NCBI GenBank assembly: GCA_963728475.1 | Contig: CAVSKL010000004.1 | Span: forward strand, 437,840-501,839 | Origin: Candidatus Eiseniibacteriota bacterium | GTDB lineage: Bacteria; Eisenbacteria; RBG-16-71-46; JABDJR01 | Length of the DNA: 64,000 bases | Direction: 5' to 3' | Shown: positions 3,079 to 3,371 of the stretch, piece after piece | Numbering within the stretch: the stretch's first letter is position 1 | Layout of the letters: each line of letters opens with the position of its first letter | The notes under the pieces: generated by a model | What the model was told of the DNA's origin: nothing | Seen by the model: only the letters and a program-made list of their open reading frames with translations | Database searches by the model: none | Program-made: the position numbers and the translations under genes

Positions 3079-3169
3079 GGAGAGGTGTCCGAGTTGGCTT
3101 AAGGAGCACGCTTGGAAAGCGTGTGTACGGGAAACTGTACCGAGGGTTCGAATCCCTCCCTCTCCGCCA
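3079..3169 (+). tRNA. tRNA-Ser (anticodon GGA), long variable arm
   Basis: GGAGAGG acceptor, anticodon stem-loop ACGC-TTGGAAA-GCGT, long variable arm TGTACGGGAAACTGTACC, T-arm GGTTCGAATCC, 3' GCCA. Confidence 0.9.
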
Positions 3170-3371
3170 TACCGCAGCGACTTGGGTGGTCGGCCCGAGG
3201 ACGTGGTCCGGTCCGGGGCCATCGGGGACGGCGTGCGAGCCGCGAAGCGGCGAGAACGCCACTCCCTCCCTCTCCGCCATACCGCAGCGACTTGGGTGGT
3301 CGGCCCGAGGAGGTGGTCCGGGCCGGGGCCATCGGGGACGGCGTGCGAGCCGCGAAGCGGCGAGAACGCCA
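3170..3371. repeat. 110-bp tandem direct repeat (1.8 copies) abutting tRNA-Ser(GGA); copy 1 ends with an exact 17-nt duplicate of the tRNA 3' end
   Basis: Seen directly: 3171-3280 and 3281-3371 are near-identical (2 mismatches). TCCCTCCCTCTCCGCCA at 3263-3279 duplicates the tRNA 3' terminus at 3153-3169. Confidence 0.9.

Follow-up and report, generated by a model that had tools for sequence, protein, structure and literature searches.

The stretch of DNA analysed here (the window; 64,000 nucleotides (nt) of contig CAVSKL010000004.1, positions 437,840 to 501,839, from Candidatus Eiseniibacteriota bacterium) carries two tRNA-Ser genes, each followed directly by a tandem array of units of about 110 nt, the complete ones ending in a perfect copy of the tRNA 3′ end. 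It is proposed, with a probability that we put at roughly 0.55, that these units are a new and distant variant, linked to tRNA-Ser, of the RtT repeats that trail tRNA operons, the type represented by the repeats of the Escherichia coli tyrT operon. The anatomy of the unit, its conservation and covariation, its strand specificity and its variation in copy number are shown here, as is a design equivalent to that of RtT. The original prediction on this DNA, which dealt with the array behind tRNA-Ser(GGA), had described it as the signature of site-specific integration into a tRNA gene.

Core-Ended Units behind Two tRNA-Ser Genes

The tRNA-Ser(GGA) gene, with its CCA encoded, occupies positions 3079-3169 (ARAGORN; Rfam tRNA, 55 bits; sequence) and, like all features of both arrays described below, lies on the plus strand. 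Its last 17 nt (3153-3169, TCCCTCCCTCTCCGCCA), here termed the core, comprise the last T-loop base, the T-stem 3′ strand, the acceptor 3′ strand, the discriminator G and CCA. The gene is followed by unit A1 (3170-3279), whose 110 nt consist of a 93-nt body and a copy of the core (TCCCTCCCTCTCCGCCA, 3263-3279), and by unit A2 (3280-3372), in which the 93-nt body is repeated with 2 mismatches (97.8% identity by blastn across the 93 nt) but the closing 17-mer of A1 is lacking, and unrelated sequence (GGCGCGCC...) follows at once. Tandem Repeats Finder (TRF) draws the array as 3153-3372, with period 110, 2.0 copies and 98% matches, and model R1 matches A1 at 85 bits (3219-3279) and A2 in part (3340-3371). 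Unit A2 is a recent tandem copy. The tRNA-Ser(GGA) gene, the tandem repeat of about 110 bp with 2 mismatches behind it and the perfect 17-nt copy of the tRNA terminus that closes the first repeat had all been reported in the original prediction, and ARAGORN, Rfam, TRF and the sequence itself confirm them; the repeats were placed there at 3171-3280 and 3281-3371, which is one base off.

A second and larger array, which had not been linked to the first, is found about 3 kb downstream, behind tRNA-Ser(CGA) (6082-6169; ARAGORN; sequence). The 3′-terminal 28 nt of this tRNA are those of tRNA-Ser(GGA), and the array (locus B) holds 3.5 units homologous to those of locus A. Unit B0 (6170-6278; 109 nt; R1 86.9 bits) is diverged in its 5′ half, while its 3′ hairpin shares 91% identity with the hairpin of unit A and carries a compensatory swap in the helix named P2 below (GCCG/CGGC vs GGCG/CGCC). 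Units B1 (6279-6388) and B2 (6389-6498) are identical to each other, 110 nt long, core-ended and of a third subtype (TRF; R1 72.4 bits each), and unit B3 (6499-6553) is cut off after 55 nt with 2 mismatches (blastn 96.4% over 55 nt; sequence); TRF gives 6259-6553, period 110, 2.7 copies and 98% for this locus. Alignment of A, B0 and B1 is possible along the full body, yet the three are clearly distinct subtypes. The core copy is present in A1, B0, B1 and B2, with 17 nt, extended to 19 nt at locus B (AATCCC...), and is missing from the last, incomplete copy of each array.

The 17-mer occurs six times in the window, where 0.13 copies are expected by chance (0 of 100 shuffles reached six), and the locus B array accounts for four of the six. 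Neither blastn nor the covariance model found a further unit in the 64-kb window, so that units stand only beside the two tRNA-Ser genes. The copy numbers given here are those of the window assembly; a separate assembly from short reads (Logan contig L205) matches window 3343-6118 without a difference and breaks off within both arrays, as is expected if the repeats are true.

Fold of the Unit

Each unit lies on the strand of its tRNA and begins right after the CCA. Its 5′ part forms a variable hairpin (H1) and its 3′ part a long one (H2), beyond which a free tail is left. The closing helix of H2 is formed by an upstream GGGGA and the copied T-stem 3′ strand UCCCU, i.e., the first 5 nt of the core, which leaves the acceptor 3′ strand with CCA as a free C-rich tail (CCCUCUCCGCCA). 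In unit A1, RNAfold and the covariation count place the conserved 3′ hairpin at 3224-3267: helix P1 pairs GGGGA (3224-3228) with TCCCT (3263-3267), P2 pairs 3230-3234 with 3256-3260, and beyond an internal loop (UGCGA/GAGAA) P3 pairs GCCGC (3239-3243) with GCGGC (3247-3251) under a GAA loop, whereas the 12-nt tail CCCTCTCCGCCA (3268-3279) remains unpaired. Folds of single sequences repeatedly give H1 and H2 with the last 12 nt of the core free.

The H2 fold is supported by covariation. A model of 16 pairs was tested on a curated alignment of the 3′ domain (A3) from 9 distinct units; this alignment was used because MAFFT with RNAalifold on whole units misaligned those of a relative (L209, see below) and yielded 9 pairs only. 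In the model 93.7% of cells are paired and 8 pairs are changed at both partners, and in 500 column shuffles the observed value of any of the five measures was never reached; when the partners were slid by 1-3 columns, pairing fell to 36-57%. P1 reads GGGGA/UCCCU in all nine units, and the inner helices covary, with P2 being found as GGCG/CGCC, GCCG/CGGC, GUCG/CGAC and CUUC/GAAG. G-U pairs (GU or UG) outnumber A-C combinations (AC or CA) by 10 to 1 in H2, which makes the fold specific to the tRNA strand and points to RNA rather than to a double-stranded palindrome bound by protein. H1 has unrelated sequences in different units and is a hairpin every time, and one compensatory swap in it distinguishes the two L209 loci. 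The original prediction had held that the element encodes nothing; the body of about 93 nt is instead a conserved, covarying, strand-specific hairpin of RtT architecture.

Other candidate structures and relationships were tried and set aside. An acceptor-like helix, in which the 3′ tail would pair with the 22 nt ahead of P1 to make a tRNA-like minihelix, was drawn by RNAfold for some units, and its duplex energies were no better than those of composition-matched shuffles (110 of 300 as good). A decayed tRNA copy would resemble a tRNA-Ser body, yet the unit bodies, aligned locally to either of the two, scored no better than shuffles (z -0.6 to +1.2), and neither the Rfam tRNA model nor ARAGORN gave a partial match on the units. 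No known ribozyme or other Rfam family was found in the window at E <= 10, save for matches driven by tRNA (sX4, plastid UTR models) and noise.

Comparison with RtT and sX4

In E. coli, the distal part of the tyrT operon reportedly consists of 178-bp repeats that contain the tRNA-Tyr 3′ end and are the source of the rtT RNA. The K-12 sequence has three 178-nt units behind tyrV and a further one between tyrT and tyrV; all of them close with the 19-nt tRNA-Tyr 3′ end AATCCTTCCCCCACCACCA, and the annotated 3′ end of the rttR RNA is the last base (CCA) of the first copy. The Rfam consensus (RF00391) pairs GGGGAAGG with CCUUCCCC, the latter being the copied T-stem 3′ strand and the first part of the acceptor strand, in a closing helix around GC hairpins; ccaCCACCA stays unpaired. 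According to a recent preprint, how rttR acts is not yet known (10.1101/2024.07.17.603846).

The window units share with RtT (178 bp x 3.1 at E. coli tyrT-tyrV) the position directly 3′ of a tRNA gene, on the same strand and in tandem, and the ending of every complete unit in a perfect copy of the last 17-19 nt of the tRNA including CCA. Moreover, in both the closing helix is built from the copied T-stem 3′ strand and an upstream G-rich complement around GC hairpins with loops of the GAA/GCA type, and the acceptor 3′ strand with CCA is left single-stranded. They differ in the partner tRNA, which is Ser and not Tyr, in a unit length of 105-113 nt instead of 178, and in having neither the AUGAGAA box nor the CCCGAAGGG hairpin; where RtT has the GGAUGAGAA box, the window units have GGGGAYGSCGUGCGAG. 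Furthermore, the host belongs to an uncultured high-GC lineage of Eisenbacteria, and several diverged subtypes occur per array and at several isoacceptor genes.

Part of this distance is bridged by units from metagenomes. One class of tRNA-Ser units found there carries the RtT box GGGAUGAGAA directly after the T-stem 5′ strand (GAGGGAUGAGAAG), and the RtT model gives weak full-length matches exactly over such units (L243, 31.4 bits; L219, 31.0; L284, 28.5; the threshold being 45). These units resemble those of the window in the tRNA-Ser partner, the core, the position and a length of 95-120 nt, and differ from them by the RtT box and the weak RtT matches, the window class having GGGGAYGSCGUGCGAG. 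Intermediate metagenome classes score 33-49 bits with the class-3 model R1.

The Xanthomonas small RNA sX4 (RF02223) offers another comparison, as its consensus is a tRNA-Ser followed by about 62 nt that end in GGGGUGAGA. The model matches weakly over the window tRNAs and unit starts (3068-3236 and 6079-6222; 27.5 and 25.3 bits), these matches being driven mostly by the tRNA part, and also over L311 4677-4835. Judged from its consensus, the sX4 model appears to describe a tRNA-Ser with the first part of an RtT-like unit; if so, it would be evidence that such a trailer is expressed in Xanthomonas.

Units in Related Genomes

Since a comparison of TadA with the GTDB species genomes gave only relatives of at most 61% identity, from many phyla, the close relatives were taken from the protein database. 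The loci of TadA homologues from Eisenbacteria, 76-83% identical to that of the window, have the same gene order and carry zero to six core-ended units of 105-113 nt behind tRNA-Ser genes for GGA, CGA and GCT. In L206 (TadA 83%) tRNA-Ser(GGA) has no units and tRNA-Ser(CGA) has six (107-109 nt); in L208 (78%) tRNA-Ser(GGA) has one of 113 nt; in L209 (76%) tRNA-Ser(GCT) and tRNA-Ser(GGA) have two each (105-107 nt), the former with an internally deleted third; and in L336 (78%) tRNA-Ser(GGA) has none. The orthologous tRNA-Ser(GGA) site thus holds units in the window, L208 and L209 and is an empty site in L206 and in L336. The original prediction had proposed looking for further copies and for empty sites, and both were found: a second locus in the window together with the GGA, CGA and GCT genes of the relatives on the one hand, and tRNA-Ser(GGA) without a unit in L206 and L336 on the other. 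The unit behaves as an element family, being present at two tRNA-Ser genes of the window and three isoacceptor genes of the relatives with a copy number of 0-6.

Neighbouring units are often identical, and diverged subtypes coexist within one array (B0 vs B1; units 1-6 of L206). Some subtypes are common to several genomes, e.g., the GCGAGCCGCGAAGYGGCGAGAA hairpin is shared by window A, window B0 and L206 unit 5. The two loci of L209 have one block in common that begins at the tRNA variable arm and takes in both units; their anticodon arms and 5′ flanks are not alike. As this block starts inside the tRNA, homologous recombination or gene conversion fits better than a crossover at the core, and its boundary argues for homologous exchange between tRNA-Ser paralogues, which have 28 identical 3′ nt in common. 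In the third copy of L209 (381-410), which follows the second unit, CAGGATT is joined to GACGCATCCCTCCCTCTCCGCAC; this internal deletion indicates decay of distal units.

Distant metagenome-assembled genomes of Eisenbacteria, with TadA about 60% identical, have the order tadA, Ser(CGA), a 45-nt spacer, Ser(GGA), a 30-nt spacer, Ala and the signal recognition particle (SRP) RNA, with zero units, so the unit body is not an ancestral tRNA trailer. In L009, L032 and L046 of this distant group the order is tadA, Ser(CGA), Ser(GGA) and Ala with spacers of 25-45 nt, whereas the window and L206 have Ser(GGA), two genes, Ser(CGA), 0.9-3.8 kb and Ala; the differing order implies that the tRNA cluster was reordered and expanded in the clade of the window and L206.

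These comparisons bear on the simplest account of the arrays, namely that the tRNA 3′ end and its native trailer were duplicated in tandem by slippage or unequal crossing-over, without function and without forming a family. Locus A is indeed (core+body)x2 at 98% identity without a terminal core, as a simple 110-bp duplication from 3153 would give, and B1 and B2 are identical. Such a history does not account for diverged subtypes within one array or for subtypes shared by different genomes, nor for compensatory changes that keep the hairpin paired; the tRNA-Ser genes of distant Eisenbacteria stand 45 nt apart without such a trailer, so that the body is no ancestral trailer, and the same design recurs in E. 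coli and many metagenome lineages. Neutral duplication is therefore contradicted as a full explanation, for which it is highly improbable, and survives only as the mechanism of the latest copy-number steps.

Spread in Metagenomes

Metagenomes were scanned for two cores lying 78-106 nt apart, and at least 120 loci matched; among the matches listed, the second core lay outside any tRNA in 66. Because the gap of 78-106 nt biases unit length, the narrow length range in this set is no evidence of a fixed size. The units trail tRNA genes for Ser(TGA), Ser(GCT), Ser(CGA) and Ser(GGA) and include at least four further sequence classes, and the class of the window is also found in two of the loci (L295 and L327). 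In samples that were not chosen for the stack of cores, an exact 13-nt criterion gave 0 of 70 tRNA-Ser genes near tadA across phyla, and a looser first pass on such genes gave one stack (L078); by the exact criterion 0 of 77 were positive in viral contigs vs 4 of 6 in close relatives.

The scan also brings up the view that the units are decayed tandem tRNA-Ser pseudogenes of which the 3′ end alone is recognisable. Tandem tRNA-Ser genes 100-136 nt apart are common, making up about half of the metagenome pattern matches listed and occurring at the distant Eisenbacteria loci, and the unit does retain the T-stem and acceptor 3′ strands; the body, however, carries its own conserved hairpin, and a pseudogene origin is scarcely credible.

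The design is met on another tRNA as well. At four metagenome loci (L237 1219-1560; L284 3600-3960, minus strand; L294 1150-1424, minus strand; L300 1480-1760, minus strand) tRNA-Arg(ACG) has a trailer of units 185-260 nt long, each closed by the 3′ end of tRNA-Arg. These units have hairpins in the RtT style (CCCGAAGGG, GCGCAGC, GAGCAAUC) and a segment antisense to the T-arm.

Integration into tRNA Genes as an Unlikely Alternative

A full tRNA followed by a short insert and a duplicated tRNA 3′ end is what was reported as an att signature, and to this extent the att-scar interpretation is partly supported; the part that is not supported is the integrase mechanism, because no recombinase was found among the window genes and stack-adjacent genes tested, the viral contigs searched hold no stacks and the window arrays end in the unit body. 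In its full form, this explanation holds that the units are mini non-autonomous integrative elements, or remnants of them, which a tyrosine or serine recombinase encoded in trans inserts at the tRNA-Ser 3′ end while regenerating it. The core-body-core layout agrees with this, as do the arrays of L206, L208 and L209, which all end in the core and pass into unrelated flank, the series of zero (L206, L336), one (L208) and two units (L209, window) at the Ser(GGA) site, and the occupation of several isoacceptor genes with a common core. In addition, the 17-mer is a frequent provirus att site: at least 120 viral contigs bear it, and 28 of the 81 copies examined in them are isolated, outside any tRNA. 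The only transposase gene encountered, for an IS30-like DDE enzyme (HTH_38 and rve; L206 13252-14232, minus strand), is located 150 bp past the six-unit array of tRNA-Ser(CGA) and may be counted on the same side.

The direct search for an integrase, which the original prediction had suggested, came out negative, with no recombinase among 22 mid-size open reading frames (ORFs) of the window or the 8 genes directly behind metagenome stacks; in L208 and L209, the Pfam matches listed for the genes up to 10 kb away include no recombinase family. A collection of 2.9 million viral contigs held neither stacked cores nor the unit motif, and the sequences flanking viral att sites do not resemble the units. 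At both arrays of the window the last element is unit body instead of a core. The copied stretch of tRNA starts only after the T-loop, so that there is no symmetric core-type site, whereas the identity at proviral att sites reaches into GGTTCGAA in nearly all isolated copies and is longer than the identity block of the units. The homology block of L209 starts upstream of the core, protein-binding arms would leave the strand-specific, covarying hairpin unexplained, and a 110-bp circle is a poor recombination substrate. Compared with tRNA-integrating islands and prophages (attL/attR) and their recombinase-less derivatives, which are cis-mobilisable and formed by accretion, the arrays share tandem stacking such as accretion can produce and empty and occupied sites among relatives; direct repeats of the tRNA 3′ end bracket the insert, with a terminal core next to the flank in L206, L208 and L209 and not in the window. 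The arrays differ in an insert of only about 93 bp that is gene-free and forms an RNA-type hairpin, in the recombinase not found, in the shorter identity block and in the lack of stacks in the viral contigs searched. Taken together, integration of the units by a recombinase is judged quite improbable.

Proposed Transcription, Processing, and Copy-Number Change

A consensus scan for promoters and intrinsic terminators gave nothing from the tRNAs to the units or near the arrays. By analogy to E. coli tyrT/rttR, transcription from the tRNA-Ser promoter would, under the RtT-like reading, run on into the units, so that the tRNA-Ser precursor would carry them at its 3′ end, and the tRNA 3′-end machinery would cut and trim them to a 3′ end at the copied CCA (...GCCA), as is annotated for rttR. 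Stable RNAs of about 100-110 nt, presenting the tRNA-Ser acceptor end without the tRNA body, would thereby be released. A 3′-terminal CC resists RNase T and the CCA-adding enzyme can restore CCA, which would stabilise such ends. The copy number would shift by unequal homologous recombination or slippage between identical cores or units, of which the A1/A2 and B1/B2/B3 pairs are a direct sign, and the units would spread between tRNA-Ser paralogues by gene conversion of the tRNA 3′ half with its trailer. The units are thus probably co-transcribed and trimmed in the manner of tRNA, and their number probably changes by unequal recombination.

A different use of the same transcript would be its termination: in a genome with few intrinsic terminators, Rho would load at the repeated unpaired C-rich tails (rut sites) and so stop transcription of tRNA-Ser. 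In favour of this, the tail CCCUCCCUCUCCGCCA is rich in C and unpaired by prediction, no intrinsic terminators are found near the arrays, and a C-rich tract is also present behind tRNA-Ala (7244-7473) and behind the L209 array. In E. coli the tyrT transcript has its end at a Rho-dependent site within the repeats. The body of the unit is, however, G-rich and strongly structured, which is unfavourable to Rho loading, and a rut site needs neither exact identity with the tRNA end including CCA nor a conserved hairpin. A role as a termination module is very unlikely.

Several observations weigh against the assignment of the units to the RtT type. The Rfam RtT model, which recovers E. coli as a positive control at 133-137 bits, gives no match to the window units at its gathering score (45 bits) or at E <= 10, and the AUGAGAA box is absent from them; for lack of an RtT match the units are filed as working like RtT and not as members of RF00391. 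The fold of a single unit is also not striking: the RNAfold check suggested in the original prediction did draw the H1 and H2 hairpins, but the folding z-scores of single window units are weak (0.0 to -2.5). The covariation sample is small, with 9 sequences that are related to one another, and P1 cannot covary since its 3′ strand is the invariant core. Empty sites and spread over several loci are equally expected of a mobile element. In six AT-richer metagenome loci (L213, L257, L293, L315, L316, and L328) a hairpin with a U-run, resembling an intrinsic terminator, lies in the first 40-50 nt after tRNA-Ser; standing before the part with the hairpin and core, it would limit read-through into the unit. 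Finally, co-transcription and processing in the window organism are inferred wholly by analogy.

Genomic Context of the Arrays

ARAGORN, with Rfam in agreement, finds four tRNA genes in the window, all on the plus strand: Arg(ACG) at 890-966, the two tRNA-Ser genes, and Ala(CGC) at 7053-7128. The SRP RNA (Rfam) is at 7795-8060. The neighbourhood is of housekeeping character, with genes for a HAD hydrolase, a hexapeptide transferase, a lipoprotein and tadA before the tRNA-Ser loci, those for a protein with a DMFA2_C domain and a small lipoprotein between them, and tRNA-Ala, the SRP RNA, dnaX, ybaB and recR downstream of locus B. The DMFA2_C protein (560 amino acids) was tried as a guide to synteny and was uninformative, its nearest homologue being 51% identical and in another context.

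Several other repeats were noted in the window. Unit B3 abuts a 222-bp direct repeat (6551-6990; two copies, 90-97% identical) that begins exactly where B3 is cut off; the junction CATCG/TTGGATCG resembles the unit motif CATCGGGGATGG, so that the truncation may have used microhomology. The 222-bp repeat holds the palindromes TGTGGACCCGGGTCCACA and GGGACCCGGGTCCC and 22-nt subrepeats, and a palindrome recurs at 12889-12903. Between tRNA-Ala(CGC) and the SRP RNA there is a perfect 28-bp tandem repeat of 8.2 copies (CCCCCGTCCCATCCCTGGCCCCCCCGCC; 7244-7473), C-rich and G-poor on the sense strand, which may be a Rho-loading tract or a mere expansion. Farther away, nested repeats of 30, 60 and 120 bp (2.2-5.3 copies; 39856-40175) lie within a long ORF (38800-40656) that probably encodes a repetitive surface protein. 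SelA (L-seryl-tRNA(Sec) selenium transferase; E 5e-143; 59067-60500) and a LigT-type 2′-5′ RNA ligase (27647-28315) are also encoded in the window, with no evident tie to the repeats.

Meaning of the RtT-Like Units

The RtT design is found in an uncultured phylum unrelated to that of E. coli, and in many further lineages, on another tRNA, and the compensatory changes argue for selection on the RNA fold. A bolder and unlikely extension would unite all such units in one ancient and widespread superfamily of 'half-tRNA' RNAs on tRNA-Ser, tRNA-Tyr and tRNA-Arg across phyla, defined by the T-stem 3′ strand within a hairpin and by a free acceptor strand with CCA; such RNAs might act in trans through their uncharged acceptor end, either as a mimic sensed by the stringent-response or translation machinery or as a decoy that draws off enzymes and toxins directed against tRNA 3′ ends, with the dose set by copy number.

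For the study of genomes, the arrays serve as a warning that short duplications of a tRNA 3′ end beside tRNA genes are not always att scars. The type of element is known, and its breadth across phyla and tRNA species appears to be under-appreciated. What had been a curiosity of E. coli becomes a comparative problem, in which the carrier tRNAs, the invariant features and the copy-number variation are now open to study.

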